Origin: an uncultured Candidatus Saccharibacteria bacterium
Lineage (GTDB): Bacteria; Patescibacteriota; Minisyncoccia; Phycocordibacterales; UBA918
Length of the DNA: 64,000 nucleotides
Reading direction: 5' to 3'
NCBI GenBank assembly: GCA_964350645.1
Contig: CAYGJY010000001.1
Coordinates: 399,939 to 463,938 of the forward strand
Made by a program: the position numbers and the translations under genes. The notes under the pieces are model-generated. The model had not been told where the DNA came from, ran no database searches, and worked only from the letters and a program-made list of their open reading frames with translations. How positions within the stretch are numbered: the first letter of the stretch is position 1; the number at the start of each line of letters is the position of its first letter. Below are positions 1 to 47,936 of this stretch, one piece after another.

Positions 1-1095
1 GTTGCCTGCCTCGTCAAATGCTTCAATAATCACCGTATGATACCCTGGCTCTAGTTCAGGCAAAGCTATCGTACTGCTGCCAGTTTCATCAATATATTCG
101 TACGGCTCATCACCATCAATTTTTACTGTAAAACGCTTTACTTCTGAAGTTTTATCGACAATAGTCAGCTGCAGAATTTGAGACGGATTAGACAAATCAG
201 CCCCTTCTACTAAAGCAATGTCAAATTTTTCAGGTTTACCAGTGTCAACCGCTAAGCGATAGTGTGTAATAGTGCCCCAACCATCTTCATTTTTAAATTG
301 AATGTGAAAATAAGAAATACCTTCATCAAGATCAGAAATTTCGATTTCAGAAATTGGTGTTTCGTACACTTTAGTCGGCACCGAACTTGGGCTACTACTC
401 AAAAGTGTTCGCACCGCAGTTACTCCAGCTGGTAGAGTCCAGTTGAGCGTGGCGGTCGTTTCTCGTGACCAGCCAGCCGGATCAGGGTGAGATTGTGAGG
501 TAATCTTGGGTGCGGAAGGAGTATTGGCAGGCGGAACATATTCAATCACCTCAGGTGCTGCTGGCACTTCTGCAGCAGCGATAGTGAATGCGGCACTCCC
601 CATACTTGAAAGGACATTGGTGCCACGACCATCAGCTGCAAGTGCTGAACCGCTAGAGAAAGACACTTTTGCATTACCAGCACTGACAGCTCGAAACGAT
701 ACATTCATAATGCCACCAGCTGATCCAGTGTAGCCAGCTGGTGAACCCCCACCAAAAGTGATCTTTCCTGAGGCATTAGAGAAGGTCGGTTCAACGGTCC
801 AGAGATTAAAAATTGTACCCTTTGAAATACCGACAACCTGCAATTTCTGGGGGTCATATGTCAAACTACCCTCTGCGGCATTAACAGGTTGACCTGCAGT
901 ATTGAGTCGAACTTGCACTGAAAAGGTACTGCCCACAGTTTGTACACCAGTTTGAGGACTAACTGAAAGTGTTGCAGCATCTGCAACTGACGCAACAAAA
1001 AGTACCAAGCCAGCCGCTAACACGAACAACACTTGGCAGAGTATATATCGACTGTTATTAGATGTACGCACTAAATTATTCTTCATCATACTCAT
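1..1095 (-). CDS. Cohesin-like domain surface protein, N-terminal part only (C-terminus runs off the window start); paralog of 32068..33597
   Basis: Not in the ORF track because it is truncated. Manual reverse-complement translation from ATG at 1095 gives MSMMKNNLVRTSNNSRYILCQVLFVLAAGLVLFVASVADAATLSVSPQTGVQTVGSTFSVQVRLNTAGQPVNAAEGSLTYDPQKLQVVGISKGTIFNLWTVEPTFSNASGKITFGGGSPAGYTGSAGG... The signal peptide and cohesin-like block are collinear with 32068..33597 (SPASGSFTAGQTF...VNAVEAKLSFDPAVLSVV...SLWTTEPAFSNSAGTIEFGGGSP). It overlaps the stop of the upstream gene by about 20 bp. Confidence 0.6.
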   Translation of the reverse strand, partial: MSMMKNNLVRTSNNSRYILCQVLFVLAAGLVLFVASVADAATLSVSPQTGVQTVGSTFSVQVRLNTAGQPVNAAEGSLTYDPQKLQVVGISKGTIFNLWTVEPTFSNASGKITFGGGSPAGYTGSAGGIMNVSFRAVSAGNAKVSFSSGSALAADGRGTNVLSSMGSAAFTIAAAEVPAAPEVIEYVPPANTPSAPKITSQSHPDPAGWSRETTATLNWTLPAGVTAVRTLLSSSPSSVPTKVYETPISEIEISDLDEGISYFHIQFKNEDGWGTITHYRLAVDTGKPEKFDIALVEGADLSNPSQILQLTIVDKTSEVKRFTVKIDGDEPYEYIDETGSSTIALPELEPGYHTVIIEAFDEAGN

Positions 1096-2140
1096 CTATT
1101 AGCTCAACTGCTTCAATTGTGGTACTAGCTCGTTTTCGGATTCGGCGACGGAGGAACCACACGATTAAACCAAGTAACCCAAGTAGCAATACAATCGACA
1201 GAGTTAAGATAGCTGCGAAAGTTATTTGATCAGCCATACTCTTAGTCCGAAGTGATTCGTCTGGTACCAACGTAGCAACGTATTGATTACCGGCTTTATC
1301 GAAAGCACGAACTCGGATAGTACTATTAAGTGACTGATCTTTGAGTAGGTACGGACTACGAGCAGTGATCCACGGTGTATCGGTACCTCCCCAGGCAAAA
1401 AGATTTAATTGTTCCAATGGTTCTTCAATAATTTCATAATGATCAATCCCTGATTGTTTATCAGAAGTATTGAAAACTACGTAGTAGCGGCCAGCATAAA
1501 TTGAGCGATCCGAATTCAAAGAAATTGTAAATGGATTTGGTGGTGCAGTATCATCACTGATTCGCTCCTGCCATTCGTCGTTCACAGAACCAGTTGGGCG
1601 CGTGTTGACAAGAATATTAGCCTCAATGGTGCGTAATTGTGCCGGAGTGCCAGCTCCATCATTTAGAAGCACAGCTGTTTCTGAAGAAAATGCAATTTGA
1701 GCGACTGGATCAACATCCTGTGCTCCAATGCGCAGGCCTGGAGCTTGAAAAATTATCTCGGCGATTGTATTCGTGAGTCGTGGATCACCTTCAATTCTCC
1801 CACAGTAACCATTTGGAATTCCGCCGGCAAACGTTATGCGCTGATTTTTTTTATCGATAACTGGTTCCTCAACCCAGACTGGAAAAATAGATGCTCCGAG
1901 CGAGATATCTACTGGTGAAATGTTTTCCGGGTACGTAATCACACCATCAATAGCATTGATGCATTCACCATCATCTGTATCAATTCTAACTGCTACTGCA
2001 ATGGTATCGCCAGGATCGATTTCTGCCTCGCGTGGATCAAGATACAGCGTGGCAGCTTCAACAGAAGTAGTCAGGGTAACAAAAAATACAAGTAAAATGC
2101 CCGAAATTAGAACTCTCATTGCTTTAAGTATATCAACCAA
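1076..2140 (-). CDS. Secreted cohesin-like domain protein with C-terminal TM anchor and basic stop-transfer tail (RRRIRKR) plus a short acidic cytoplasmic tail
   Basis: 354-aa ORF with an N-terminal signal peptide and LYLDPREAEIDPGDTIAVAVRIDT...INAIDGVITYPENISPVDISLG...ITFAGGIPNGYCG. This has the same β-sandwich pattern as the other cohesin-like genes here. The C-terminus FAAILTLSIVLLLGLLGLIVWFLRRRIRKR is a hydrophobic helix followed by basic residues. Confidence 0.6.
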   Translation of the reverse strand: MVDILKAMRVLISGILLVFFVTLTTSVEAATLYLDPREAEIDPGDTIAVAVRIDTDDGECINAIDGVITYPENISPVDISLGASIFPVWVEEPVIDKKNQRITFAGGIPNGYCGRIEGDPRLTNTIAEIIFQAPGLRIGAQDVDPVAQIAFSSETAVLLNDGAGTPAQLRTIEANILVNTRPTGSVNDEWQERISDDTAPPNPFTISLNSDRSIYAGRYYVVFNTSDKQSGIDHYEIIEEPLEQLNLFAWGGTDTPWITARSPYLLKDQSLNSTIRVRAFDKAGNQYVATLVPDESLRTKSMADQITFAAILTLSIVLLLGLLGLIVWFLRRRIRKRASTTIEAVELIDEYDEE

Positions 2141-2192
2141 TGTGACAAAAAAAATGATCAGCTTGTGTATACAAAATTAATAGAAACGAAAA

Positions 2193-2217
2193 ACCCCTCT
2201 CGTGGTGGGAGATAGGG
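2193..2217 (-). terminator. Imperfect hairpin followed by a T-run on the minus strand, downstream of the 2246..3403 gene
   Basis: aaaCCCCTCTCgtggtgGGAGATAGGGcttt gives one bulged stem. On the minus strand it is followed by GTTTTTCGTTTC. Confidence 0.3.
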
Positions 2218-2245
2218 CTTTCGCGTACTCTAAGCTGTTTGTAAT

Positions 2246-3403
2246 TTAGAACGTAGGCGTTGCTACGTAGGTGAGTGTGGCTTCGTAGTCATCACCAGCT
2301 TCTTGCAAAGCGGTAATTTGTACCTTATAGCCAACATCTGCAACTCCAACTCCGTTTCCAGAGGTAATTCCAGCTGCTGGACCATTGTGGGCCATCACTA
2401 CTCGTGGGCTCGTACTGGCTGCGATCCAGGTATCAGAAGCAAAATCTGCAGTCCGAACACCATTGGTGCTCGTGTCGCTTGATGTTACTCCCCAGTGACC
2501 ATAGGTCTCATCAAAACCAATCGTTGCCGCTGGCGCCGCCCAAGCGCCTGGTGTATCGGTCTCAACTCCATTGTTGAAGAGATCGATATCTGCTCCAGTT
2601 GAAGACAATAACGTATCATCAACTTGTACTGTGACAACATACCCTTGCTTAGCGTTTGTGTTTACTACAAGCCGCTGTGCGGACGTTGTAGCGTTGTCAC
2701 CTCCGGCTAGAAGTGTACCAAACCTAATTTGAGTAGGTGTCGTTGTACCAGTTGTAGTGGTACCGTTAACTGTTTGTCCTCCTCCAAGACCAAGCACTGA
2801 GAATTCGAATTGAGTGTCAATACTAGCGCTGACTAGAACATTTTCTAGAATCATTACTCGTGTTGCACCAATATCTCCTTCTGAAGTAGCAATATTGATC
2901 TCGTAAGAACTGGTTGCTGGGTTAACAATTTGACCGTTCCCCGTTCCACCAAAGGTGGCGTTGGTACCGATTTCAACTGTGACGGTTGTACCCGTTGCAA
3001 TTGTTTCTGTACCACTGGTGAAGACAATGCCAAATGTTGAGGTTGAAACCCCCCAGGTGGCTCCTGACGGTGAATCTGCAAGTGCATAATCAGTCGTCGT
3101 AGCTAAGTCGATATCGCCTGCGTCAATGTTTGACAAGTCGAAATCTGACGTGCCATCTGGGAAAGTAATTGTAATGGTGTCACCATTACTGACTGGTGTC
3201 CCTTCATCTGGGATCGTGAAAGTGATCGTATGATTGGACACCACATCCGGTGCTGAGTCAGAAAGTACATCACTGACTTCAGTTAGACTTGCAGCTTCCG
3301 AAAAACGGAGTGACGGCAAGCCAAGAGACCATAATAGGACTGCAAGGCCAGCAATCGCTGCAACAGCTTGGAGTACTCCGACGGATTTTTCCGATCGAAA
3401 CAT
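2246..3403 (-). CDS. Secreted Thr/Gly-rich surface protein with a WxL-like C-terminal domain (paralog of 43420..44568)
   Basis: 385 aa with a signal peptide and T/G/S-rich repeats. The C-terminal ...ETYGHWGVTSSD...ITALQEAGDDYEATLTYVATPTF is collinear with the paralog ending ...ITALQEAADDYSAILTYIATPTF. The terminal D-Y-x-(A/G)-T-L-T-Y-(V/I)-x-T-P pattern resembles the second WxL/YxL motif of Gram-positive WxL-domain proteins. Confidence 0.55.
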   Translation of the reverse strand: MFRSEKSVGVLQAVAAIAGLAVLLWSLGLPSLRFSEAASLTEVSDVLSDSAPDVVSNHTITFTIPDEGTPVSNGDTITITFPDGTSDFDLSNIDAGDIDLATTTDYALADSPSGATWGVSTSTFGIVFTSGTETIATGTTVTVEIGTNATFGGTGNGQIVNPATSSYEINIATSEGDIGATRVMILENVLVSASIDTQFEFSVLGLGGGQTVNGTTTTGTTTPTQIRFGTLLAGGDNATTSAQRLVVNTNAKQGYVVTVQVDDTLLSSTGADIDLFNNGVETDTPGAWAAPAATIGFDETYGHWGVTSSDTSTNGVRTADFASDTWIAASTSPRVVMAHNGPAAGITSGNGVGVADVGYKVQITALQEAGDDYEATLTYVATPTF

Positions 3404-3683
3404 ACTCTACGTTGATTGTTAGCTTACACCCCTTCGCAAAAGCACCAAGCTGTTAGTGCCTTACAAAGCTCGACTGTGGTAGTCGACACTACGCAAGTTC
3501 TCCACCCCTCACGTATGTAAAAGTGATGTAAACATATCTGCATGCATAACACCTGGCTGCTGGTGCCCGCGCGCAAGCGCACGTAATAACTAATTGTTAC
3601 CTTGTACAGCAGATACTAGTACATTGTAGCTCGGGTCATTTTCATTACAGAATTTTTGCTGGGGAAAACAATATTTTAGCGCA

Positions 3684-4802
3684 CTAACCAGTCCAGTTGA
3701 AAAGCAAAATTGAGAAGTCTTCAATACCAACATTACCGTTACCGTTGATGTCTGCCGGCGGATTTGAATCACCACCTGGAGTTTGCCACCAAAACAACAA
3801 AATTGAAAAGTCGATCAGATCTACTTCCCCGTCACGATTAAGATCTGACGGGGTTGTGGCTCGCCCTTCTACTCCTACAAACAATGTGAGAGCTGTACTG
3901 AAGCTGCTCTCAGTTGTTAGTGCACCGGTACCCTGGACATACCGAGCTTTAGCAATATACTCCGCTGGACGTAAATCTGACGTCGAATAAGCAATTCCCC
4001 ATGTCCCGTTAGCCGCAGCGTCAAGTCTCGCAGCAACGTCATTGTTGATATACAACTGTACCTGACTGTTAGGGGCAGCCTGACCACTGAAGACAATAGT
4101 ATCACCTGGGTTAATTTCAACATTATCAGCTGCAATTGTTGGTGGCAATAATAACCCTCGCAGATTTGTTACGGCTCCTTGGGTAACATCGAAAGTAGTG
4201 TTGTAGGTGATTGAGCGTACTCCATTAACATCTGTGGACCAAAACCCCATTGTAGCGGCTCCTGGGGACGTCTCAATTGAAAATTCAAACTCTCCTCGAC
4301 TGTTAGCATTCACTCGACCAACCGCTTCTGCATCAAGAATAATATTAACTTGACGATTGGGATACGCGATACCTTCGACACTGATAGATGTGTCGCCAAA
4401 GTCAACGCTACTACCACCTCCACCCCCTGAACCACCTCCCGATGATCCTCCCCCGCCAGACCCAGCTGGTTCAATCGTACAGTCAGCCCCACAAAAATCA
4501 CCATCTTCATTGTTGCCGTCATCACATTGCTCACTAAAAATTGTTTGCAAAATACCATCACCACAATACGGTCCATACGAACAAATTGGAGTGCATTGTC
4601 TACCAACAATAGTTGTACTGTATACACCAGTTTCACCTGGTACATCACATTCTTCTCCAGTCTCTACTAGTGAATTTCCACAGTTAGTCACTTGTAGTGA
4701 CGTAGAAGCTACGCTCATTGTTTGAGCGTTAGAAAAATGACTTGGATGTGCCACACCAAGTAATACCAGTACGACACTGAAAACTAGTACAAACAATTTC
4801 AT
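3684..4802 (-). CDS. Secreted protein: Myxococcus-type Cys-rich repeat, Gly/Ser linker, Ig-like domains, C-terminal type-I dockerin
   Basis: 372 aa with a signal peptide. YCGDGILQTIFSEQCDDGNNEDGDFCGADC matches the CGDG...E.CDDGN...DGC...C repeat. A GGGGSSGGGSGGGGGSS linker follows. The C-terminal DLNRDGEVDLIDFSILLFWW...ADINGNGNVGIEDFSILLFNW is a duplicated Ca-binding dockerin segment. Confidence 0.7.
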   Translation of the reverse strand: MKLFVLVFSVVLVLLGVAHPSHFSNAQTMSVASTSLQVTNCGNSLVETGEECDVPGETGVYSTTIVGRQCTPICSYGPYCGDGILQTIFSEQCDDGNNEDGDFCGADCTIEPAGSGGGGSSGGGSGGGGGSSVDFGDTSISVEGIAYPNRQVNIILDAEAVGRVNANSRGEFEFSIETSPGAATMGFWSTDVNGVRSITYNTTFDVTQGAVTNLRGLLLPPTIAADNVEINPGDTIVFSGQAAPNSQVQLYINNDVAARLDAAANGTWGIAYSTSDLRPAEYIAKARYVQGTGALTTESSFSTALTLFVGVEGRATTPSDLNRDGEVDLIDFSILLFWWQTPGGDSNPPADINGNGNVGIEDFSILLFNWTG

Positions 4803-4805
4803 AGC

Positions 4806-5744
4806 TTATACCTTACGTTTTTTGCGGCGCTGAGAGTAGAGTAATGAGGCTGTGATAAGGAAAATTGTTAGCAATGGCAAGATAATAGAGATCATGTGTG
4901 GTAATGATAAGCCAAGAAGACCATACCCAGCAGTCTGCAGTGTTCCGTACGGGACAATATTTAGAGTTACTTCCCCTTCCTGTTTCAGCTCTTCTTGATT
5001 ATAGATTTCATAACGAGCTAAATAACTCCCCGATGGTAATCTAGTCGGCAGCTCAGAAAGCACATCTTCAGTCCCAAATGGATCGACTTTTTTAATTCTA
5101 TTTGTGTGTTCAGTCTCTTCAAGCAGAATGGTTCCCGTTTGATCATAAATTTTAAAAACCACTTTTGATGGTGCCACTGGTACATTACCGATATTTTCGA
5201 TTAACATCTTGAACCGAATCTTTCCAGGGAAGTATAACCAAGCAAATTTATGTCCTTCATTTAGATCACCAATGTTAATTCGTCGCACACGGAAATCTAA
5301 AATTTCTTTGTCAATAACATTGAGACTAATATCAACCTGTGCCCCAAGCGAAATACTCACAGAACCACTTCCATTTCCATCGTCTGCTGGACCAGTCTTA
5401 ATACGTAGTTTCCCCTTATAGTTTTTGAACTCAGCATCGTCAGGAATTTTAACCCGCACTGTCATTGGCACCTTCTGTTCACCTGCAGGGAGTAAAAAGG
5501 TATCGCCTTCGATAATTTCGATCCAATCTGATACTTCGGGCGCATCTATACTAATCGTTGCCTTAAGAGCCTTATTAGGATCACTACGTACAAGCAAAAT
5601 TTGTTGCTCATAAACTGAGTTTCTCGTTAGGCTAGTATTTTGAAAATATGGCGGCGTTACACCAAAACCTGCGTGTGCCATTGGAGCACTCAAAATCTGC
5701 AGGATGCATACAAAAAATAAAGGTACTAGTAATTTCCTTACCAT
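4806..5744 (-). CDS. Signal-peptide protein with β-sandwich ectodomain and C-terminal TM anchor (RRKKRKV tail); DUF916/CscA-like architecture
   Basis: The ORF-track start is 5882, but the ATG at 5744 gives MVRKLLVPLFFVCILQILSAPMAHA, a clean signal peptide, and avoids overlap with the upstream gene. GFGVTPPYFQNTSLTRNSVYEQQILLVRSDPNK resembles the DUF916 N-terminus. It ends in a TM helix plus a basic tail. Paralog of 42224..43321. Confidence 0.5.
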   Translation of the reverse strand: MVRKLLVPLFFVCILQILSAPMAHAGFGVTPPYFQNTSLTRNSVYEQQILLVRSDPNKALKATISIDAPEVSDWIEIIEGDTFLLPAGEQKVPMTVRVKIPDDAEFKNYKGKLRIKTGPADDGNGSGSVSISLGAQVDISLNVIDKEILDFRVRRINIGDLNEGHKFAWLYFPGKIRFKMLIENIGNVPVAPSKVVFKIYDQTGTILLEETEHTNRIKKVDPFGTEDVLSELPTRLPSGSYLARYEIYNQEELKQEGEVTLNIVPYGTLQTAGYGLLGLSLPHMISIILPLLTIFLITASLLYSQRRKKRKV

Positions 5745-5856
5745 GAAAAAGAATGCGCGAGTCGCTGGTTTATTATCGAAGAAAAGTGACAAAAACGCAA
5801 CAGCCACTGCTTTATAACAGTGGCATAAGTTGCATTGACAAATTTGAAGTGAGGGT

Positions 5857-7719
5857 TTAATTACCCCACGTAGAGGTAGCACTGACTACTGCCGTAAAGA
5901 CGTTCTCACCGAAGTAGTTACCAGCAAAGGTAATCGTACCTGGGATTGCAATACCCCAGAAAGTATCGCGACTAGACGGAGTTGTAGTTGCTTGCGACTT
6001 TGGAATCAAAGACTCAAGAACCTGTGGTGTGGTTGAAGCATTGAGTGTAAAGCCAGAACCATAAGAGACTGCTGAAGTTGCGTACTGCTGCTGATCGACT
6101 GGAATAGTTGATGTGGATGATACTCGACATGGGCTACCTGGAACAAAGCTATTACACATTGACTCTCCGTACAGCTCTTGGTTTAAACCAGTGTTACCAG
6201 TAGTTTCTACAGTTGTAGAGGCATTTAGGTTTTGTGAATCGGTACCAGGTTCTAGCGGTCCATACGGGATTGATGTGTCGAGGAGGTTAAGAGCCAGCAA
6301 GCTATTAAGTTCAATGTTGGTGTTTGTACTTGGTACAAATTCACTACTGGCAGCATCATCATCGATACCTGAAACAGCGGCCAACCAACTCTCGTCGAAA
6401 TAGAATGCATTTACGTCAGTTGGATCAGCGATGTACCAAAGTGGGAACGTACAATCGAACTGTAATGTGGTATCGGTATCATCTGCTGCATACGTACAGC
6501 TAGTAGTAGAAGCAGTACATTCTAGATTCCACGTTGTTGTTGCTACCTGACTTGGATAACAATTATTGGCATTATACTCTCCTGCAGAATCACAAGAAGT
6601 AGTACCAACCCCAGACCGGAATACTGAAGCTGTATAATCAACAATTTCGTCATAGGTATTACCTCCAACTGCATCACAGCTATTAGCGTCCGTTACCTGG
6701 AAAGAAAGTAGGAAACCTGTTGTTTCTCCTCCCTCTGTAACAAGATCTATGTCTAGACCATCGTTTAGTATGATCTGAGCCCCAGTGATAGTAGGAGCGA
6801 CGTTATTGACAGTAAGAATAGAATCAGTACCTTGCGCAACTCCAATTGATGGATGCCCGTGATTGTCAACAATGAAACCATAAGCTGGGTAATCATCATC
6901 CTGCATCACAGCTCCTAGTTGGTAAGTTGCGGTTGCGTTTGTACTGACAGGAACTGTGGTTGATGCTAATTCAATACCATTACATCCTAATGAAGAAGTG
7001 GCGTTAAAGCTTGGTGTACTACAGACATATAAACTGACAGTGTCTTGCGTGCCGGTTGTGTCTGCGTCAGTTGAAGTGGCATAAAAGATTACTGTTGCGC
7101 CAGGATCAGCCGGTGAATCATCCCAATAACCAGTGAACGTTGGTCGATGATTTACGTTAAACGGTGAAGACGTAGAACCAGTTCCTTGCTGTGGAGTCAC
7201 GTTACAACGTGCGTTTGGCACTGAGTCACAAACCCAAGCGTACCAATCATTTTCTTCGGCAAATGCTTCAGTTGTTGTAGTGGCTGCCGTTGCTTGTGCG
7301 CCCGTGGTAGTGAGTCCTGAAACTGCCCATAGTACATCAGTGCCTCCACAGGTTGGTGGACCTCCGTTAACGGCAGTTGGTGTTGCGTTACCGTCACAGA
7401 TGAGCAGATAATAATCTTCAAGACTTGGGTCAGATGCTACTGCTGTCCAGGTCATGACGTCACCGGAGTTTGTCGGACTTGAGGTTGAAGACTCTGGTGA
7501 CTCAAAAGGACCAGTATCAAAAGATGGTGGTGTGTTAAGTACCGTGACTGTTGTCTGGGCTGTGCTCGAACTTTGCGCGATCGCTTGCTTGAATTCTTTG
7601 GCACCGATGTTTAACAAGAAGATAAACGTAAACACTAGTACTCCAGCAAAAGCGCTAAGAATAGAAATCTTTCCGGCTGTTTGAATATAGGTTTGAAACT
7701 GCTCTTTGTTGTACGACAT
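5857..7719 (-). CDS. Type-II (N-terminal signal-anchor) Cys-rich, Thr-rich surface protein
   Basis: 620 aa. The N-terminal ISILSAFAGVLVFTFIFLLNIG is a TM helix. There are many Cys in an otherwise T/S/G/D-rich ectodomain. The C-terminal motif FWGIAIPGT is shared with the giant protein C-terminus, which ends YWGIAIPFGT. Confidence 0.6.
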   Translation of the reverse strand: MSYNKEQFQTYIQTAGKISILSAFAGVLVFTFIFLLNIGAKEFKQAIAQSSSTAQTTVTVLNTPPSFDTGPFESPESSTSSPTNSGDVMTWTAVASDPSLEDYYLLICDGNATPTAVNGGPPTCGGTDVLWAVSGLTTTGAQATAATTTTEAFAEENDWYAWVCDSVPNARCNVTPQQGTGSTSSPFNVNHRPTFTGYWDDSPADPGATVIFYATSTDADTTGTQDTVSLYVCSTPSFNATSSLGCNGIELASTTVPVSTNATATYQLGAVMQDDDYPAYGFIVDNHGHPSIGVAQGTDSILTVNNVAPTITGAQIILNDGLDIDLVTEGGETTGFLLSFQVTDANSCDAVGGNTYDEIVDYTASVFRSGVGTTSCDSAGEYNANNCYPSQVATTTWNLECTASTTSCTYAADDTDTTLQFDCTFPLWYIADPTDVNAFYFDESWLAAVSGIDDDAASSEFVPSTNTNIELNSLLALNLLDTSIPYGPLEPGTDSQNLNASTTVETTGNTGLNQELYGESMCNSFVPGSPCRVSSTSTIPVDQQQYATSAVSYGSGFTLNASTTPQVLESLIPKSQATTTPSSRDTFWGIAIPGTITFAGNYFGENVFTAVVSATSTWGN

Positions 7720-7796
7720 ATCAATAAATTACTCTTAAGTAATTGTAACGGAAGTAAAAAAGTTTTTCAGTAGTTATACACAGGCTATACACAAGC

Positions 7797-9005
7797 TTAT
7801 TCGTACCTGATTGCATCAAGTGGATTAAGAGTCGACGCACGCTTAGCTGGGAAAATACCGGTTAGATACCCCACTACAGCCGAAAATAGTGCAATAAATG
7901 TGAGGAAGCCAAGTGGAAATGAGAACAATGAGACTGACTGTCCTCCAAATTGTCCCGCCACAATATTCAACATCAAGTTAATTGAAAGCCCTAATGTAAC
8001 CCCCATCACAATGCCGCTGATGCCCCCTAAAAAACCAACCACAATTGATTCTGAAACGAACAAATATTTAATATCAGTGGGAGCTGCGCCGATCGTACGC
8101 ATGATCCCAATCTCCTTAGTTCGTTCGAGGAGTGTCACTGTCATAGTGTTAAACATACCAATCGCTGACACGATTAAAGCGATGCCACCAAACGTACCCA
8201 GAACCGCTTGAACACCTTGAAAAATTTTTGATGCTTGTTCAACTGTCTTAGAGAGAGCCGTTACCCGATACCCTTCAGCGATCAGTTTCTCTTCTACCAA
8301 TGGTAGAGCTTCATTTGTTGCCACACGCACCTGAATTCTTTCGTACTCTTCAATACCAATGTGAGTTCGGAGCTCTGGAAGCATCATCAGCGCATTTAAC
8401 ACACCTTCTTCTTTAGTAATACCTTTAACGGTATATTCTTTATCGATGAAAATTTCATTGATGTTTTCGGTGCCATCATTGGCCGGTACCAGGATGCGAA
8501 ATTTTACCTTTTGGCCGACAAACTCTTCAGCATCTTCAATCCCAAAGAGCTTGAGTACCGCTGGAGAGAGCATAATACTCGTTGTATCACCTGCATCTTC
8601 ATCGACAAACACCTCCCCCACTTCGGCAGTTAAACCCGAATAACGCAAATACGGCGGCTCAGCTCCCTGAAGAAATACGTTACCGGTAAGACCTTTATAG
8701 GTGACCAAGGCCGGGAAACGAGCTAAGGGCGCTGCGTCTAAAATGTTTTCATCAAGCTCAAATAAGCGGACAGTATCATTGGTTAACTTCAAATTTTGTG
8801 CTCCAGTAGCAGAAACACCAAGCGAAAGCAAAGTTTCTCCAAAGACAATCTGTTCGAGAATAATTTGTTGCAACCCAAACCCAAGACCAACGAGCACCAC
8901 CACAGCACCAGTGCCAACACCCATACCAAGAATGGTTAGCCAGGTACGAAGTGGGTTAGTTTTGAAGTTTCGAGTCGACAAGCGAGCGAGATCTGATAGC
9001 AACAT
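7797..9005 (-). CDS. ABC transporter permease of the FtsX/MacB (ABC3) family
   Basis: 402 aa with TM1, a ~230-aa extracytoplasmic domain and three C-terminal TMs. The FtsX-family signature region is GGIALIVSAIGMFNTMTVTLLERTKEIGIMRTIGA. It is adjacent to the ABC ATPase gene with a 2-bp gap. Confidence 0.8.
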   Translation of the reverse strand: MLLSDLARLSTRNFKTNPLRTWLTILGMGVGTGAVVVLVGLGFGLQQIILEQIVFGETLLSLGVSATGAQNLKLTNDTVRLFELDENILDAAPLARFPALVTYKGLTGNVFLQGAEPPYLRYSGLTAEVGEVFVDEDAGDTTSIMLSPAVLKLFGIEDAEEFVGQKVKFRILVPANDGTENINEIFIDKEYTVKGITKEEGVLNALMMLPELRTHIGIEEYERIQVRVATNEALPLVEEKLIAEGYRVTALSKTVEQASKIFQGVQAVLGTFGGIALIVSAIGMFNTMTVTLLERTKEIGIMRTIGAAPTDIKYLFVSESIVVGFLGGISGIVMGVTLGLSINLMLNIVAGQFGGQSVSLFSFPLGFLTFIALFSAVVGYLTGIFPAKRASTLNPLDAIRYE

Positions 9006-9007
9006 AT

Positions 9008-10330
9008 TTATGATTTATAGCTTACATCAACACCTTGGGCGATTAATTTCTCAAAATATCGAGTGAGTGAATCAGCTTCTTTCTCATCAAGTGCTAGCCC
9101 ACCAACCGTCACCCCTTTTGACATTTTTTCGTTAAAGTCGCTCACATGAATGACACCAGTCACCCGGTCTGCAATAATATCAACTAGGTTCTCATTTTGC
9201 TTTTTGGAAAGTTTAATACGCTTTGACTGCAGGAGGTGGTCACGCAAACGTTCGGCTAGCTGATGCTGCGAGAAGAATGAGTGCTCATCGACTTTTTTAG
9301 ATCGAAAACGTTTGATGTCACTTGCTTGGTCAATGATCTTGGTAGCAGTCGATGCCATTTGCAATGCAACTTTGTGATTGATTTCTACACCGCCAGCTTC
9401 GTATTTTGTTTCTAACATTTTAACAAAGTCAGATTTTTGGATTCGTCCATTGATATATAGATTGAGAGCTTTTTCGAGACGCATTAACTGGTCATACGTA
9501 TAATCCTGAGTCAGGTAATTCACCATACTTTTAACACGAAGCGTGTCGACTGAATCATACGGAAATAGACGCGCTAACTGTTCGAGCTCTGTTACTATCG
9601 TCTCCCCTTCTTTAACTGGTTTGATTTGCTTGCGTTGAGGGTTTACCACTTCACGGACCACAAAACCATCTTTCAAATAATACACTCGATGAGCGTAACT
9701 CAAGTGGGCAGCATTATGGGAAACCATAATAATCGTCCGTCGATCGAACGTGTTAATTTCATCGATTTTATCCATCACCTGCTGTGTTGACACTGAATCA
9801 AGGTTTCCAGTCGGTTCATCCGCCAAAAGAATTTTTGGATCGTTAATCATCGAGCGAGCCACAGATACACGCTGTTGTTGACCTCCCGAAAGCATCGCAG
9901 GAATTTTGTGTGATACATGTCCTACTCCAAAACGATCGAGCAGCAACTGTGCCCGGCGTTCACGCGTGGCTTTATCACCATTACAAAAAATCATTGGCAG
10001 AGCCACGTTGTCGAGCACTGATAGTGACTTAATCAAGTTGAATGACTGGAAAATAATTCCCATTACATAACGCTGAAAGTACACTCGCTCCTGAGGTGGG
10101 TAGGAATAAATGTCATCACCTTTGATAAGCAAGGTACCCTCTCCCGGTGGCAAGGAGCCCTGAATCGAATACATCAACGTCGACTTACCCGAACCAGAAG
10201 CACCAAACAAAATAATGTATTCACCTTCGTAAATATCAGTATTAACCCCTTGCAAGGCTTTAAATTCATTGCTCTTTCCCTTGTTATAAATGATCGAAAG
10301 ATCACGACAAATAATAAACGGCTTCGCCAT
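9008..10330 (-). CDS. ABC transporter ATP-binding protein (MacB/LolD/FtsE-like NBD) with a ~200-aa C-terminal extension of unknown function
   Basis: Walker A is GASGSGKST. The ABC signature is LSGGQQQR and Walker B is ILLADEPT, with an H-loop SHN. AAGGAG sits 8 nt upstream of the ATG. The C-terminal extension (~aa 230-440) has no recognisable motif. Confidence 0.85.
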   Translation of the reverse strand: MAKPFIICRDLSIIYNKGKSNEFKALQGVNTDIYEGEYIILFGASGSGKSTLMYSIQGSLPPGEGTLLIKGDDIYSYPPQERVYFQRYVMGIIFQSFNLIKSLSVLDNVALPMIFCNGDKATRERRAQLLLDRFGVGHVSHKIPAMLSGGQQQRVSVARSMINDPKILLADEPTGNLDSVSTQQVMDKIDEINTFDRRTIIMVSHNAAHLSYAHRVYYLKDGFVVREVVNPQRKQIKPVKEGETIVTELEQLARLFPYDSVDTLRVKSMVNYLTQDYTYDQLMRLEKALNLYINGRIQKSDFVKMLETKYEAGGVEINHKVALQMASTATKIIDQASDIKRFRSKKVDEHSFFSQHQLAERLRDHLLQSKRIKLSKKQNENLVDIIADRVTGVIHVSDFNEKMSKGVTVGGLALDEKEADSLTRYFEKLIAQGVDVSYKS

Positions 10331-10466
10331 AAAAAATACTCCTTAATTACACCACAGTTTGCGAATTAACCGACCATTCGTATCCACACGTAATAAATTA
10401 TTAACAAAAAACTTTAGTATCCCCATGCAAAAAAAGATAGACATAATACACCTACAGTAACAATAT

Positions 10467-11978
10467 TTATCCACCAATGTTCTTAACCCAGCCAAAAGTA
10501 CTTTCAAAGTTTTCGAGAATGAGGTCGATGATGTTCTTTTCTTGGATTGGCGTGAAGAGGACAAAGTTTTCTGATTTTCTACTATTACCAGCTTCATCCG
10601 TACAATCAAGCCAAAATTGATAGACCGTCGCTGATGCAAAATCAACAATCACTTCAACGTGCCTTTCAGCATAGCTAATTTCTTCTGCCTCAATGACTGT
10701 TGGCTCAACACCACCTGCAACACCTTCTCGATATGTCATGGTGCAGTAGGCTGGCTCATCAGTATTCCACTCTACGATGGTTTGAATACGTGATTCTCCA
10801 CCAGGAAATAAGGTTGATTCATTAGTTACGTTGGTAATGAGTGGCGGAGCGGTATCTTTTACTGTAATGAATGTAATTGGTTGACTCTTTACTCGATCAC
10901 CACCACCATTTTCTGCAATCACAAAAGCTACATAGCGCGTTCCAAGTGTAAGGTCAGCGATACGCATCTGGTGTGAGGTAAGCAGCGTTGGCCGCCCTTT
11001 GGAGTTTTGGATACCCGTTGTGAGATCCTGATACTCAACCAGCGCTTTGGCTGGTACCGTCGTATCCCAAGCAAGTGTAGCTGCATCTTCCTCTACTTTT
11101 ATGATGCGCAAATTTCTGATTTCTGGTAATGAAGCTTTCGTCTTAAAGGTATAGTCAAAACTCTCACCTGTAATACCAAGACCATCAGTAGATCTCACCT
11201 GGAAGTGATACTCAGTGAACGGTTCGAGACCAATGAGTCTGACGGCGTGTTGAGCTACCGGATCACCCGGATCAGACTGAGCTAACGTATAATTTCCTGG
11301 CGTATATTCACTGGCTGGTGCAAATAATACTTCAGAGCTCGCTTCACGGTCAGTAGTCCACTCGACTAACGCGGAGGTAGTTTCTGGTGTAACCGTCGGT
11401 GGCCCAACGATTGTCAGGTCCTCAGTAATACCCTGAATCGCCTTTACGGTTTCGTTCAAAATTTCTTGGAGTTGCTGAGGATTAGAAATCTGCTGAATCT
11501 GCTCTTTGATTTCTTGGACCGTTTGAGTTTCAACTTGAACTTGTGAAGTAGTGGTAGTTTCAGTGGTTGTCTCTGAATCGCTTTGTCCATCACCACTACC
11601 TTCTTCAGTCGGCGGCTCTCCTAACTGGACTTTATAGTCGGCGGAAATACCTTGGTTCCCTTCTTCATCTGAAGAGACAACTCGGAAATGATATGTCCGA
11701 CCTGGCTCCAGATCATCAATAGTAATCGAGTGTTCACGACGCGTCGCTTCAGGTAAACGAACAATTCCGTAGTCATCTTTCAGACCATAGTTAACAATCG
11801 AGTCGGCGTCTTCATCTGTTTCCCAGGTAATAGTTACACTATCTTCTTGCACGTCAATGACCTGCACATTATTAATTTCTGGGGCACTCACATCACTAGA
11901 CTGCGCATAGGCAACACTGGTAGCCATACCCGCCAGTAAAAGCGCCGCGAACAACTTCGATCTCATAGTGCTAATCAT
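10467..11978 (-). CDS. Secreted protein with about four fibronectin-III / purple-acid-phosphatase-N-like domains
   Basis: 503 aa with a signal peptide and repeated W(E/D)T...Y...(Y/F)RV blocks, for example ITWETDEDADS...GRTYHFRVVSSD, VEWTTDREAS...EYHFQVRSTD and LAWDTT...RYVAFVIAE. It starts 4 bp after the giant-gene stop. Confidence 0.7.
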   Translation of the reverse strand: MISTMRSKLFAALLLAGMATSVAYAQSSDVSAPEINNVQVIDVQEDSVTITWETDEDADSIVNYGLKDDYGIVRLPEATRREHSITIDDLEPGRTYHFRVVSSDEEGNQGISADYKVQLGEPPTEEGSGDGQSDSETTTETTTTSQVQVETQTVQEIKEQIQQISNPQQLQEILNETVKAIQGITEDLTIVGPPTVTPETTSALVEWTTDREASSEVLFAPASEYTPGNYTLAQSDPGDPVAQHAVRLIGLEPFTEYHFQVRSTDGLGITGESFDYTFKTKASLPEIRNLRIIKVEEDAATLAWDTTVPAKALVEYQDLTTGIQNSKGRPTLLTSHQMRIADLTLGTRYVAFVIAENGGGDRVKSQPITFITVKDTAPPLITNVTNESTLFPGGESRIQTIVEWNTDEPAYCTMTYREGVAGGVEPTVIEAEEISYAERHVEVIVDFASATVYQFWLDCTDEAGNSRKSENFVLFTPIQEKNIIDLILENFESTFGWVKNIGG

Positions 11979-11982
11979 AGCA

Positions 11983-14900
11983 TTAGTCCCCAGTTACGTA
12001 GAAGGTATTTACCCCACTGTGCGGATTACTCTTTGTACCAAACGGGATAGCAATTCCCCAATAAATCTCGTCAGCAACTGGCGGTGAGACGGTGATTGGT
12101 TTTGACAAATCGACTTCAATCAACTGCGGAGTCGTACTTGGAAGATTAAAGCAGTCAACACATGAACTGTACGTAAATGTCGACGTTGAGAAAATTTGCT
12201 GAGTAGCTGGGATAAATGATGTCAAACCATCGGTCAGATCAGTTCCTTCGATTTCAATGTCGATGGCAGCGTTACCAATGTTGGCAACAGTGGTTGATGC
12301 ATTGGTCGATCCGGTGTCATCGAAGACAGCCAGCGCTCCGTAGTCGATATCATCATCAACTTCAAGAGCCCACATTGTTAGTAGATCAATACCTGGACTG
12401 GTCGCCAAATTACTCGCACCACTCTTATCAACCACTTCCAAGAAGGCATACCATAACTCTCCACCGTCGGTATCCGTCGGGTCAGCATGGAAGGCAAAGT
12501 CAGCGTAACACTGTAATTCACAGCTATTACCACTACAGTTCGTAAAGCTACATTGTGGTGTTGTGGTAGCAATATAACAGTTGTTATTGTCCGCCGTACA
12601 TGCGGCAGTGGCTGTCGTAGTAAACATAGTGGAGGTAGCCGCATCTAGATCGGTGTAGCCGTTGAGGTCAGTCACCGTCGTGGTTGCAAAGACTCTGGCA
12701 GTTCCGCCTGGGTTCAAGATAATATTCTGACCAAGGTTGAACTGAATTGGGCCAAATGTTGGAGGGAACTGCAGTGTCAACTCTGCGACTCGAGCGTATG
12801 AATCAAGTACTGAACCGTTATCGGTTACTCGGAAACAGTACGCCTCATCTGCTGCATTAGCAGTGACTACCACAGCATACTCAACTTCTGTATAGTCACC
12901 CTGGTTAATAGAAAGACCAGCAGTCTTATTCGATGGATCTTCAACAAATGCACCGGCACTGAAATCACCAATCGTACCCGTAAGAAGATCTACCGTGGCT
13001 GCACCGTTAGCCACAGTGGTAGAGGTCGCCATACAGATCGCTGAACTACCGCATGATGCGTCAACTGGCACTGCAGCGTAACTGCCACCAGAGACTGCCG
13101 CACAGGTTGGTGCGGCTCCTTTGCCAGCAAACTCAAGAGTCAGTAGCTGACCAGTCAAATCGAGACCACCGTTTTCAATAGCCAGTCGCAGGCGTTGTGG
13201 TACACCGATAGTAACCGTATCGAGAGTAGTATTTTGTGCTTTTGCCCAACTTGCACCACCGTCAGTCTGTTCAACACCAAAGTAAATAGTTGGCTCTTGA
13301 TTGAGTCGTGGTCGAGACAAGAAGCTGTCCCAGCCACCGTTATTTGTCCAGTACGTAAAGCCGTATCCTCCAGATGAATAGGTTGAATCAGCCGCTGACA
13401 CCGATGCCAATAGTGAACCTACTGGATCAAAGACCGTAACGTCAATCGAATCATCGGTCTGCCAATCAATTTCTACTTCATACCAACCAGTACCTGCAGT
13501 AGTGAAGGCAGCTGATGAAGTTGCCAACCTAACAACTGGTGTGAAACTGTCATTGCGGCGAGCATTTTTCACCAACGACACTCGCTCAGTACCGAAGAGC
13601 TCCATACACACACCATAGTTCTGGAAGCCAGATACCGGTGCCTGCACACCGAAGAGCGTACATATCTCGTCAGAGTCACCATCATCAACATCAATATACT
13701 GACGGTAGCGGATAATCTCACCCTGACTGACCGTCTGATCAAAGCGGGACATACCACCATTTGAGAAGTTTCCTGGGACAACCGCACTGAGTCCATATGA
13801 ACCACCAAAATTAAATGCTGCATTTGTCTGGAAATCACTTGTTTGGCCACTGTATTCGGAAATATTATTGTCCTCAAAATCATCCGCAGCGATAAATGTA
13901 GCGGTACTCGAACTGGTGGTGTTAACTGCCACGTTATCGTAGTACATATAAATACTTGTTACTGTGTCGCTCAGTAACGTCGGTACTGACACCCACACAA
14001 GAGCTTCAGTACTAGCGGTGAAACTTTCAACCCAATACGGAATCTCAGTTGTGCCATCGTCACTCGTGAAGCGGAGATCTTCAAAGTCACTCTGCATGTT
14101 GGCATCATATGGAATAGTAATTTCAATCGCTGCATCAGTGTAGGTTGATGCATCGCGGTTACGTAGACGAATCTGCTGTCGCTTATCCCAATCAGTATCA
14201 AACCACTCATCAGCTGGTACGCCAAGACCTCCATCATCATTGCGCCAACGATATTGAGTCTGTTCAATTAGTTGACAATCACTATCGTCCCAACGGATGG
14301 ATCCACAATCATCACTGACGTCACCATCATTATCAAACGCCTCACCGTAGAGTGATCCGCCACCATTTCGGAACGTCCAGGCACTGGTGGTGGTTGCTTC
14401 AAGATCGACGTTAGTACCAGAGAAACCTCCGTTATAGAAGTACGTGCCATCAATAATCAACGACGCATTCGCATCAAGCGCACTGGAGGCGAGCGAAATC
14501 ACTGCGCCAGTACTTGTGCTAAGTGTGAAGGAACCATTGTCGAGCAAGATAACAGTTGTGGTACCGAGTAGATTAAGCCCAAAATCATCCATTCCACTTA
14601 TATCAAAGTATTCTGCTTCGAAGGTACCACCAGCAAAAGTAAATCCATATGTGCCAGTATCAGACTGTACCGTCGTGGTTGCCGCATCAACACCAACAAT
14701 CTCAAGACGACCGTTATTACCAATACTGATACTTGAAGTCGCTGCATCAACAAAAGTTACCGTAACTGGCCGCGCGCTTGCACCAAGTGTCGAACCATCG
14801 AAATTCTGGTCATTATTCCAAAACTCAGTCGTTGTATCAATATTAAAGTCACCATAAATGAAGAGATCCCCGGGGGTGCCCGCATGATCTTGTGAATACC

Positions 14901-46155: not shown

Positions 46156-46181
46156 TTATTAACATTCTACCGCAAAATGCT

Positions 46182-46679: not shown

Positions 46680-46723
46680 GCACGACAGATAGAAAGTTCA
46701 TACTGCTGCCCAATGAAGTGGGA

Positions 46724-47899: not shown

Positions 47900-47936
47900 G
47901 TAGTAGTTATGACGTTCGGTCAGTAATAATCTTTCA

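Follow-up and report, generated by a model that had tools for sequence, protein, structure and literature searches.

Two secreted proteins of an uncultured, ultra-small bacterium (Patescibacteria), P1 and P2, encoded in the window (the whole stretch of 64,000 nucleotides analysed here) end in what their sequences and a structural model identify as true calcium-binding dockerins, and the three cohesin domains encoded alongside them are likewise real at the sequence level. Together they probably constitute a non-cellulosomal, membrane-anchored cohesin-dockerin display system, in which the binding itself is the step that we infer. The conserved gene context of these dockerins and cohesins is a new result of this study, and a search of the open-access literature and bioRxiv brought up no publication in which a cohesin-dockerin system is connected with Parcubacteria or the Candidate Phyla Radiation.

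Patescibacteria account for much of bacterial diversity, and for most of them a life in attachment to other cells is assumed. To our knowledge, almost nothing is known about how those outside the cultivated Saccharibacteria build their surface or attach. The about 14 genes in fixed order described below provide a specific, testable set for Patescibacteria surface and attachment.

Table 1. Coordinates of the features discussed, numbered from the start of the window
Feature	Coordinates	Strand	Extent	Basis or remarks
Cohesin C, partial	1..1095	minus	365 aa, cut by window start	signal peptide, cohesin module, Ig-like domains
Cohesin C module	526..978	minus	about aa 40-190
Cohesin B	1076..2140	minus	354 aa	phmmer, hhalign, synteny
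g385	2246..3403	minus	385 aa	secreted; between P1 and cohesin B; N-terminal domain of P2-head kind
P1	3684..4802	minus	372 aa	ORF, Pfam/NCBIfam, homologues
P1 dockerin	3687..3851	minus	aa 318-372	two F-hand repeats, ends ...FNWTG; Pfam, PDB phmmer
P1 tandem Ig-like domains	3873..4403	minus	aa 134-310	AF2, Foldseek, profile match
P1 Gly/Ser linker	4404..4466	minus	aa 113-133	read from sequence
P1 Cys-rich head	4467..4691	minus	aa 38-112	two 4-Cys repeats, second = TIGR02232/DUF4215
P1 signal peptide	4725..4802	minus	about aa 1-26	sole hydrophobic segment in P1
g358 and g620	4806..7719	minus		directly upstream of P1 in 66/66 loci
MacB/FtsX-type permease, ABC ATPase, 3xFn3 protein	7797..11978	minus		Pfam, synteny
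Giant surface protein	11983..31959	minus	6,658 aa	DUF2341, Laminin_G_3, Ig-like (Pfam)
Cohesin A	32068..33597	minus	509 aa	Pfam Cohesin, hydrophobic segments, synteny
Cohesin A module	33043..33492	minus	aa about 36-185
Hsp20	33614..34081	minus		Pfam HSP20 41.3 bits; between P2 and cohesin A
P2	34145..36049	minus	634 aa	ORF, Pfam, alignment to P1
P2 dockerin	34148..34312	minus	aa 580-634	Pfam, AF2, Foldseek
P2 linker and Ig-like pair	34313..35098	minus	about aa 318-395 and about aa 396-579	alignment with P1 aa 99-317
GH18 gene	46724..48022			in window
Degenerate Cys motif	51220..51306	minus	aa 905-933 of 1,418-aa protein	YCGDGIVQ...EQCEIGDEGCTEYC

Dockerins and the proteins that carry them

The C-terminal segments of P1 and P2 scored 24.3 bits (aa 319-366) and 31.7 bits (aa 582-628), respectively, against Pfam Dockerin_1 (PF00404), the gathering score of which is 22.9 bits. 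They were identical at 42/53 positions (53 aa each), in agreement with the first-pass annotation, which had described near-identical dockerin segments at the ends of both proteins. Only four matches to D.[ND].[DN]G.[VI]...D were obtained in the six frames of the window, two loops per dockerin. In P1 these 12-residue loops span aa 320-331 and 351-362, and the best PDB matches obtained by phmmer were dockerins, with both loops in register. Among the calcium-ligand positions singled out beforehand (1, 3, 5, 9 and 12), all were fully or almost fully conserved in repeat 1 of the 35 orthologues (D1 35/35, N3 34/35, D5 35/35, N/D9 35/35, D12 35/35), as were positions 1, 3, 5 and 12 of repeat 2 (D1, N3, N5 and D12, each 35/35). 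Position 9 of repeat 2, a Gly or Ser offering no side-chain Ca ligand, is the sole deviation. A chance occurrence of the motif was also considered and rejected. When just the 65-aa dockerin served as query, the homologues obtained were short contig-end fragments only; they provided the dockerin alignment but no usable architectures.

Modelled in isolation, the P2 dockerin (AF2; pLDDT 87.5, pTM 0.75) displayed a helix after each 12-residue loop. When this model was compared with the PDB using Foldseek, ranks 1-23 were all occupied by dockerins, with TM reaching 0.72/0.76 and probability reaching 1.0, and these come from cohesin-dockerin complexes, e.g. 2y3n_B (TM 0.72/0.76) and NagH 2ozn_B (rmsd 2.1). 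Calmodulin-type EF-hand proteins appeared in the same list only from rank 24 downwards, with TM <0.3 and probability <=0.04; the reading as a plain EF-hand was rejected on these grounds and the dockerin assignment proposed earlier was retained. The full-length AlphaFold model of P1, which relied on 35 near-identical orthologues, was uninformative for the dockerin and the Cys-rich head (both below pLDDT 60, the dockerin non-helical) and is superseded by the domain-only model.

Protein P1 is composed of a signal peptide, a Cys-rich head, a Gly/Ser linker, two Ig-like domains and the C-terminal dockerin. More than 1,800 homologues (about 60-84% identity along the whole length) occurred among Kaiserbacteria and Patescibacteria, under the names DUF4215 or cysteine-rich repeat protein. 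The signal peptide, with its inferred cleavage site, was present in all orthologues, though its sequence is variable, and the linker (AF2 pLDDT <50) kept its length and composition in the 35 orthologues.

The second repeat of the P1 head (aa 78-112, CGDG..E.CDDGN..DG..C...C) matched TIGR02232 with 44 bits (NCBIfam cut-off 20.8) and lay marginally under the Pfam gathering score for DUF4215 (26.3 vs 27 bits). The first one (aa 41-74) is divergent and reached 15.4 bits, below the TIGR02232 cut-off. All eight head cysteines were invariant (8/8) in the 35 orthologues. What had been announced as a Myxococcus-type Cys repeat thus holds as a repeat but not as a Myxococcus-specific one, the best solved match being human pappalysin-1 (residues 864-899; profile match, E 2e-4). 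Compared with the long arrays of family TIGR02232/DUF4215, P1 has just these two copies, and its host belongs to the Patescibacteria. The family is also represented in an adhesive-trail protein of a diatom (bioRxiv 10.1101/2023.03.06.531300). Across the six frames, the four-Cys regular expression hit three places, namely the two copies in P1 and one motif in the 1,418-aa protein (49762..54018), where the repeat had been said to recur. This recurrence could not be upheld: as an isolated segment the motif scored 13.7 bits (E 0.04) against the TIGR02232 cut-off of 20.8, Pfam gave no match for aa 905-933, and no more than one degenerate copy can be claimed there.

Protein P2 displays a signal peptide, a head homologous to g385 (hhalign 96%), a long Gly/Ser/Asp linker, two Ig-like domains and the dockerin. 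Residues 99-372 of P1 could be aligned with residues 348-634 of P2 over the Gly/Ser linker, the Ig-like pair and the dockerin, which confirms the linkers and Ig-like domains reported earlier in front of both dockerins. In both proteins the N-terminal signal peptide is the only membrane-type signal. Pfam Big_6 scored 23.9 bits in P2 and 24.9 bits, under the gathering score, in P1. The P1 Ig-like pair (AF2 pLDDT about 90) found its best Foldseek matches in the PDB among adhesin Ig domains (Bap C-region 7dm0, SiiE 2yn3) and matched Bap at the profile level (E 2.7e-6). In contrast to the long repetitive stalks of Bap and SiiE (Big_6, Big_13), which it resembles by profile and by fold, it comprises two domains only and forms an invariant spacer of the dockerin cassette.

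This cassette corresponds to the last ~240 residues, i.e. two Ig-like domains and a WTG-ending dockerin, and occurs behind several differing N-terminal heads. It was present in 58/58 full-length WTG-ending representatives of a 50%-identity set, always with an Ig-like domain immediately N-terminal to the dockerin, and the heads of these proteins were diverse (g385-type, Cys-rich, FG-GAP propeller, Fn3 and others). At one locus (L056), the free g385 is replaced by a dockerin-fused g385-type protein. The idea of a general surface-assembly device, put forward in the first-pass annotation, gains from this reuse of the cassette on several heads, but "general" is an extrapolation, two head classes being predominant. 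No glycoside hydrolase, esterase, lyase or CBM was found on P1, P2 or any sampled cassette protein; the supposed non-cellulolytic setting is borne out in that no dockerin-bearing protein has a glycoside hydrolase or CBM.

Membrane cohesins and a conserved gene cluster

Cohesin A consists of a signal peptide, the cohesin module, an Ig-like stalk, a TM helix (about aa 403-430) and a cytoplasmic helical tail of ~80 aa. It scored 25.8 bits against PF00963 (gathering score 24.1). Cohesin C, the module of which is 48% identical to that of cohesin A, reached 45.9 bits with the same model, and its orthologues (about 584 aa) have a cytoplasmic tail and, some 100 aa before their C-terminal end, a TM helix. 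Cohesin B (signal peptide, divergent cohesin-like module at about aa 28-180, Ig-like domain, C-terminal TM helix and basic tail) had no Pfam match. The cohesin A module used as a phmmer query retrieved it (E 2e-10), and its family profile matched the A/C profile with an hhalign probability of 99.8% (E 3e-30); the C-terminal TM was observed in 55/57 of its orthologues. Both complete proteins (A and B) thus combine a signal peptide with a membrane helix at the C-terminus, and the partial C shows the signal peptide. The cohesin-like partners suspected from the outset are hence present, two above the Pfam threshold and one by homology. The three families have in common the invariant motifs INA, SIF..W..EP, F.GG.P.GY and L..DG.GT, a conservation matched by that of the near-invariant dockerin. 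Neither the cohesin B nor the A/C profile matched any solved cohesin among PDB sequences at the sequence level.

The conserved gene order reads FGE-like, P2, Hsp20, cohesin A, the 6,658-aa giant protein, Fn3, ABC, MacB, g620, g358, P1, g385, cohesin B and cohesin C. These about 14 genes form a ~37-kb block common to Paceibacteria/Kaiserbacteria-type genomes. Counts were made over every related genome or metagenome locus long enough to check. In 54/54 genome loci P1 was followed by cohesins B and C, and in 43/45 metagenome loci P2 was followed by Hsp20 and cohesin A; the adjacency of dockerin and cohesin genes noticed in this genome therefore extends beyond it. The cluster counts three cohesins against two dockerins. 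The giant protein is located between both cohesin-dockerin sets and its two ends are syntenic in related loci, while MacB was present in 64/66 loci.

Proteins g385, g358 and g620 had no Pfam or NCBIfam relatives, even at E<=10, and PDB profile searches with g385 and g358 gave no informative ones. Protein g620 is secreted, whereas g358 has a C-terminal TM and is WxL-interacting-protein-like: its family matched the product of 42224..43321 (hhalign 94%), which itself scored 29 bits with PF06030 (vs 27.3). The WxL/Csc clusters of Firmicutes combine WxL-domain proteins with an adjacent DUF916/WxLIP protein that is anchored by a TM at its C-terminus; Pfam detected no WxL domain in g385. Over 1..12500, a scan for promoters and terminators gave no more hits than with shuffled sequence, and neither tRNA genes nor Rfam matches were found in the window.

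Proposed display system and competing explanations

True dockerins adjoining membrane cohesins in a conserved cluster suggest a plug-and-socket pair that most likely mounts non-enzymatic surface proteins. P1 and P2 would be such proteins, Sec-exported in Paceibacteria/Kaiserbacteria-type Patescibacteria, with a common ~240-residue anchoring cassette connected to the variable head by a flexible Gly/Ser linker. The putative cargo of P1 is a small acidic module of DUF4215/TIGR02232 repeats with four predicted disulfides, and that of P2 a domain of ~300 aa matching in kind the secreted g385 encoded nearby. Most likely, the dockerin would plug, by non-covalent binding, into the one cohesin module that each of the three membrane proteins of the cluster bears at its N-terminus; cohesin A is encoded next to P2, and cohesins B and C are encoded next to P1. 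Given their signal peptide, Ig-like stalk and C-terminal TM, the cohesins would be held outside the wall and the heads tethered to the cell. The cluster, with its giant protein, MacB-type ABC transporter and several secreted proteins, most likely builds a surface structure, with adhesion as its probable role.

Many natural dockerins have no known cohesin partner. P1 and P2 might carry real dockerins that leave the neighbouring cohesins unbound and instead bind cell-wall or host glycans in a Ca2+-dependent manner or self-associate, the cohesin-like proteins acting independently in the same structure. We consider this unlikely: it sits badly with the presence of cohesin genes beside each of the dockerin genes, in two distinct neighbourhoods that are both conserved (54/54 and 43/45), with closest structures that were determined for cohesin-bound dockerins, and with dockerin and cohesin motifs that are each nearly invariant. 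It would nevertheless be in line with the fact that dockerins outside cellulosomes abound (the dockerin profile has 26,498 matching representatives at E<=1e-3), that the cohesin profiles lack a sequence match to solved cohesins, and that an essential dockerin-domain protein of Saccharibacteria was read as possibly glycan-targeting (PMC10633639).

The C-terminal ...DFSILLFNWTG, with its exact WTG end in 102/144 top representatives, could also be viewed as a sorting or processing signal and not as a cohesin ligand, its reader being machinery encoded in the cluster, for instance an unknown transpeptidase or the MacB-type ABC transporter, the ABC/MacB pair being conserved there. Such a function is very improbable, as P1 and P2 already possess N-terminal Sec signal peptides, the WTG residues lie within the confidently folded P2 dockerin (AF2 pLDDT about 95 at the C-terminus), and the ORFs scanned included neither a sortase-like nor an exosortase-like gene.

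Cellulosomes consist of a multi-cohesin scaffoldin, dockerin-bearing carbohydrate-active enzymes and a CBM. A miniature complex of this type degrading polysaccharide, evoked by the fact that both domain families are best known from cellulosomes and by the GH18 gene of the window, is hardly conceivable and was rejected: there is one cohesin per protein and therefore no multi-cohesin scaffoldin, the dockerin proteins and sampled cassette relatives lack the enzyme and CBM domains listed above, and the GH18 protein has no dockerin since the whole window contains only four F-hand loops.

The preferred display system would extend cohesin-dockerin biology to TM-anchored single cohesins, a WTG-ending Ig-Ig-dockerin cassette and non-enzymatic cargo. 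Should binding be confirmed, this pair, being compact and strongly conserved, could find use as an orthogonal tag for assembling proteins. A broader and more doubtful proposal is that the ~37-kb block might encode one previously undescribed surface organelle of Paceibacteria, where membrane-spanning cohesins, whose cytoplasmic tails are conserved, surround a giant fibre protein with the interchangeable dockerin-cassette heads that they hold. If true, this organelle would be the attachment apparatus of presumed episymbionts and would operate via cohesin-dockerin coupling, not via sortase, SLH domains or pili.

Relation to known systems and dockerin type

Non-cellulosomal cohesin-dockerin pairs are exemplified by NagH-NagJ of Clostridium perfringens (PDB 2OZN), and cohesin/dockerin genes are also on record from ANME archaea and from further microbes that are not cellulolytic. 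As in these pairs, cohesin and dockerin are found here on separate secreted or surface proteins of an organism that is not cellulose-degrading, and their presumed role is extracellular protein-protein assembly; the dockerin fold with two Ca-binding F-hand repeats is also that of NagH. Unlike in these systems, the dockerin carriers have no enzyme domain, each cohesin protein crosses the membrane once and bears one cohesin module at its N-terminus, two Ig-like domains always precede the dockerin in a protein ending with WTG, and the genes are gathered with that of a giant protein in one fixed cluster.

Anchoring of cellulosomes relies on type II/III X-dockerin modules binding cohesins of cell-bound scaffoldins, e.g. 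SdbA, OlpB and ScaE. A dockerin protein would similarly be anchored to a cell-bound cohesin here, yet through a TM helix instead of SLH domains or sortase, and multi-cohesin scaffoldin, enzymes and CBM are all missing. The Ig-like module directly N-terminal to the dockerin recalls the X-Doc dyads, where the X-module contacts the cohesin.

A precedent within Patescibacteria is SEML1_0315 of the saccharibacterium Southlakia epibionticum, an essential dockerin-domain protein (Wang et al. 2023, PMC10633639). It also places a dockerin on a cell-envelope protein, which was noted as unusual for a non-cellulolytic organism. In contrast to P1 and P2, neither a cohesin partner nor a cassette or gene cluster is mentioned for it in that report (PMC10633639).

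At the positions that serve recognition in clostridial type I dockerins, those of P1 and P2 displayed hydrophobic residues, with L/I at 10-11 (L-I and I-E) and L-F at 17-18 in both repeats. Their best structural matches were type II dockerins (2y3n_B, 5k39_B, 4u3s_B) within a list that mixes type II, type I and non-cellulosomal NagH dockerins. The type I rule established for C. thermocellum is Ser/Thr at 10-11 and Lys/Arg at 17-18, without an adjoining X-module. With these recognition residues absent, an Ig-like domain adjoining and structural matches of mixed types, the "type I" designation given in the first-pass annotation was abandoned. "Type I" is simply the name of the Pfam model. Many of the 26,498 representatives retrieved with the dockerin profile are multi-copy arrays, unlike P1 and P2.

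The C-terminal module of P1 and P2

The secreted proteins P1 and P2 both ended in a dockerin, an identity established by sequence matches, calcium-ligand conservation and fold ranking together. Pfam Dockerin_1 was found at their extreme C-termini (24.3 and 31.7 bits, respectively; gathering score 22.9) and 42 of 53 residues were identical between the two modules. The loop pattern D.[ND].[DN]G.[VI]...D occurred only four times in the six frames of the 64-kb window, twice in each dockerin, a confinement that ruled out a chance motif. When the P1 C-terminus was compared with the PDB (phmmer), type I dockerins of A. cellulolyticus came first, followed by many other dockerins, and both P1 loops were in register with both loops of the solved domains. 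A profile of 35 P1 orthologues also matched a series of dockerins among PDB sequences. The calcium ligands that the first-pass annotation had proposed to check at positions 1, 3, 5, 9 and 12 were encountered throughout repeat 1 (D1, D5, N/D9 and D12 in 35/35 orthologues, N3 in 34/35) and at positions 1, 3, 5 and 12 of repeat 2 (D1, N3, N5 and D12, each 35/35). Position 9 of repeat 2, occupied by Gly or Ser, was the sole departure from the canonical pattern.

A plain EF-hand, which the same annotation had set against a dockerin, was ruled out by register, ligand positions and fold. The isolated P2 dockerin, modelled from an alignment of greater diversity (A5, 43 sequences), displayed a helix after each loop (pLDDT 87.5, pTM 0.75). 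In a Foldseek ranking against the PDB, ranks 1-23 were all dockerins from cohesin-dockerin complexes (2y3n_B, TM 0.72/0.76; also 5k39_B, 4u3s_B and 3kcp_A). Among them was 2ozn_B (rmsd 2.1), the dockerin of NagH, which is non-cellulosomal. Calmodulin-like proteins started at rank 24, with TM <0.3 and probability at most 0.04. In the AlphaFold model of full-length P1, whose alignment was near-invariant, the Ig-like pair reached a pLDDT of about 90, head and dockerin were unresolved and the dockerin helices were absent. Since the isolated P2 domain folded confidently, the low-confidence dockerin of the whole-protein model is no counter-evidence to the fold.

The earlier label "type I" found no support. 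It is the name of the Pfam model only, the top structural matches were of mixed types, and residues at the clostridial type I recognition positions were hydrophobic. An Ig-like domain always adjoined dockerins of this kind, as in type II/III X-dockerins.

A cassette with interchangeable heads

P1 (aa 99-372) and P2 (aa 348-634) aligned from a Gly/Ser linker through two Ig-like domains to the end of the dockerin. The sole hydrophobic segment of P1 was its N-terminal signal peptide; apart from the signal peptides, scanning for hydrophobic segments revealed no membrane segment in either protein. Among the 35 P1 orthologues, all eight head cysteines were invariant, linker length was kept and the dockerin was near-invariant. 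Their profile matched the biofilm protein Bap over the Ig region (E 2.7e-6, PDB sequences); at the structural level (Foldseek), the Ig pair resembled Bap, SiiE and other adhesin stalks.

When 1.84 billion 50%-identity representatives were searched with the dockerin profile, 26,498 matched at E<=1e-3, of which 2,869 were retained at E<=1e-10. The exact WTG end was present in 102 of the 144 best new matches, and 58 of these 102 were full-length. All 58 shared a C-terminal unit of ~240 residues (P1 aa 136-372, P2 aa 397-634) behind varying N-terminal heads; the dockerin is therefore part of an anchoring cassette, Ig-Ig-dockerin, that is used repeatedly. The commonest head was of the g385/P2 type (two invariant cysteines, proteins of 555-665 aa), g385 being the secreted protein encoded between P1 and cohesin B; the P2 head was homologous to this free protein (hhalign 96%). 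Other heads were of the Cys-rich P1 type (6-14 Cys), resembled the 43420..44568 protein of the window, or consisted of an FG-GAP propeller, an Fn3 domain or a segment resembling the giant protein. At one related locus (L056:9358-12439), a 671-aa P2-like dockerin protein directly followed the P1 orthologue, in the usual slot of free g385.

The cysteine-rich repeat reported earlier in P1 was recovered: its second unit scored 44 bits against NCBIfam TIGR02232 (cut-off 20.8) and 26.3 bits against Pfam DUF4215, narrowly below the gathering score of 27, and the first unit was divergent (15.4 bits, TIGR02232). The orthologue profile also matched human pappalysin-1 residues 864-899 (E 2e-4, PDB sequences). 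The claimed recurrence in the 1,418-aa protein did not hold, since aa 905-933, also as an isolated segment, reached 13.7 bits with TIGR02232 and had no Pfam match. A loose four-Cys regular expression matched three times in six frames, on both P1 units and on this motif, which is probably a degenerate relative failing the family test.

Features of the cohesin/dockerin region and its surroundings
Feature	Position	Strand	Remarks
P1	3684..4802	(-)	intact ORF, 372 aa
P1 Cys head	aa 41-74 and 80-108	(-)	two four-Cys units, eight cysteines in total
P1 Gly/Ser linker		(-)	21 residues, between head and Ig pair
P1 Ig-like pair	aa 134-310	(-)	two domains
P1 dockerin	aa 318-372	(-)	C-terminal end
P2	34145..36049	(-)	intact ORF, 634 aa
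Cohesin A	32068..33597	(-)	509 aa; Pfam Cohesin 25.8 bits
Cohesin B	1076..2140	(-)	354 aa; matched to cohesin A/C by orthologue profile
Cohesin C	1..1095	(-)	partial ORF; Pfam Cohesin 45.9 bits
Giant protein	11983..31959	(-)	6,658 aa, TTG start; DUF2341, Laminin_G_3, Ig-like (Ig_Rha78A_N)
Hsp20/alpha-crystallin gene	33614..34081	(-)	between P2 and cohesin A, 43/45 related loci
FGE-sulfatase-like paralogues	36055..36855, 40131..40952, 40984..41793	(-)	formylglycine-generating-enzyme fold
WxL-interacting-protein-like genes	4806..5882, 42224..43321	(-)	C-terminal TM; hhalign 94% between the two
g385-type secreted proteins	2246..3403, 43420..44568	(-)	paired with the WxL-interacting-protein-like genes
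Cys motif YCGDGIVQ...EQCEIGDEGCTEYC	51220..51306	(-)	aa 905-933 of 1,418-aa protein; TIGR02232 13.7 bits

Cohesins, gene order and proposed head display

The cohesin-like domains announced beside the dockerin genes were confirmed. Cohesins A and C exceeded the Pfam gathering score (24.1) and their modules were 48% identical; cohesin B had no match in the Pfam scan and its orthologue profile was related to that of A/C over the cohesin module and the next Ig-like domain (hhalign 99.8%, E 3e-30). Invariant motifs were common to the three families, and no solved cohesin was found when their profiles were compared with PDB sequences. In all three proteins a signal peptide preceded the cohesin module. 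Cohesin B ended in a transmembrane helix and basic tail (55/57 orthologues), and cohesin A in a transmembrane helix followed by a helical tail of ~80 residues, predicted to be cytoplasmic. Cohesin C, cut before this region in the window, displayed the cohesin A layout in its orthologues (tail of ~85-100 residues; L015, L024, L035, L036, L059 and L068). The tail of this A/C type was conserved (~85-100 aa, SRKTKKLTKAE...KEI.DVE; 32068..32400, minus strand), which suggests a link from the surface cohesin to something intracellular.

The cohesin/dockerin genes all lay on the minus strand. Mapping the window proteins on 82 loci revealed a fixed order: giant protein, 3xFn3, ABC ATPase, MacB/FtsX permease, g620, g358, P1, g385, cohesin B and cohesin C. 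Cohesins B and C followed P1 at 54/54 loci with enough downstream sequence; upstream, g358 and g620 were present at 66/66 and MacB at 64/66. Around P2 (metagenome scan, P2 alignment), the order was FGE-sulfatase-like gene, P2, Hsp20, cohesin A and giant protein, with Hsp20 and a cohesin A-type gene <=3 kb downstream at 43/45 loci; the other two were distant relatives (~32% identity). In related genomes, synteny with the P1 and P2 gene sets held at both ends of the giant protein, and positions 1 to about 36,855 are one conserved block in which two dockerin and three cohesin genes flank the giant gene.

P1 homologues were numerous (>1,800, ~60-84% identity along the entire protein), with names including Patescibacteria and "cysteine-rich repeat protein". 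When one genome per species was scanned, 286 contained relatives; almost all of these genomes bore the label Paceibacteria, Kaiserbacteria, Parcubacteria or Patescibacteria. Some cluster-bearing contigs carried Azotimanducaceae, Acidimicrobiales, Balneolia or Saccharibacteria labels (L004, L036, L076 and many "uncultured Candidatus Saccharibacteria" TPA bins), probably through mis-binning or default labelling of Paceibacteria-type contigs.

The identity of the domains, the fold of the dockerin and its conserved ligands, the topology signals, the modular cassette and the synteny kept across loci make it fairly likely that membrane-anchored cohesins hold the P1 and P2 dockerins for head display. 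After Sec export, the dockerins would bind Ca2+ and insert into the cohesin at the distal end of the stalk proteins, so that the heads would be displayed above the envelope on a flexible linker. Adjacency suggests pairing of P2 with cohesin A and of P1 with cohesin B or C. The P1 head would contain disulfides, and the system would have an adhesive role. Free g385-type proteins may, speculatively, associate with the dockerin-anchored copies. With cohesin genes conserved beside both P1 and P2, dockerins binding something other than these neighbours seem rather unlikely, and a C-terminus acting as a sorting signal is still less probable. A cellulosome-like enzyme complex is hardly credible, as no sampled dockerin carrier bore an enzyme or CBM and each cohesin protein had a single cohesin.

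Cohesins and dockerins are familiar outside cellulosomes too (C. perfringens NagH/NagJ, ANME archaea), PF00404 and PF00963 had already been assigned to these proteins by automated annotation, and the domains described here are new members of known families. An essential dockerin-domain protein was described in a saccharibacterium, cohesin being unmentioned (PMC10633639). No paper on a Parcubacteria/Candidate Phyla Radiation cohesin-dockerin system, cassette or cluster was found in the searchable library. What appears new is the arrangement: transmembrane proteins that each combine one cohesin with a cytoplasmic tail, an Ig-Ig-dockerin(WTG) cassette whose heads are non-enzymatic and exchangeable, and a gene order that is fixed around the giant protein. 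Its significance would be greater if the block were the attachment apparatus of these organisms.

Accompanying genes

The Hsp20 gene lacked a signal peptide and is odd, yet conserved, in a surface-protein cluster. An FGE-sulfatase-like copy occurred upstream of P2 at most related loci reaching that far; at least the first of the three paralogues (36055..36855) displayed an N-terminal hydrophobic segment. The two pairs of WxL-interacting-protein-like and g385-type genes resembled the WxL/Csc surface clusters of Firmicutes (42224..43321 against PF06030, 29 bits). Since orthologues were ~318 aa long, the 4806..5882 ORF probably starts at Met47 (nt 5744). At 44905..48374 (minus strand), a GH18 glycoside hydrolase gene, whose product had no dockerin in the six-frame loop-pattern search, lay between the genes for a Y-family polymerase resembling UmuC (IMS domains) and an S24 peptidase resembling LexA/UmuD. 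The secreted 1,418-aa protein (49762..54018, minus strand) combined several Ig-like domains and SdrD_B with a C-terminal peptidoglycan-binding PG_binding_1 domain, which represents a different mode of wall anchoring encoded in this part of the genome.
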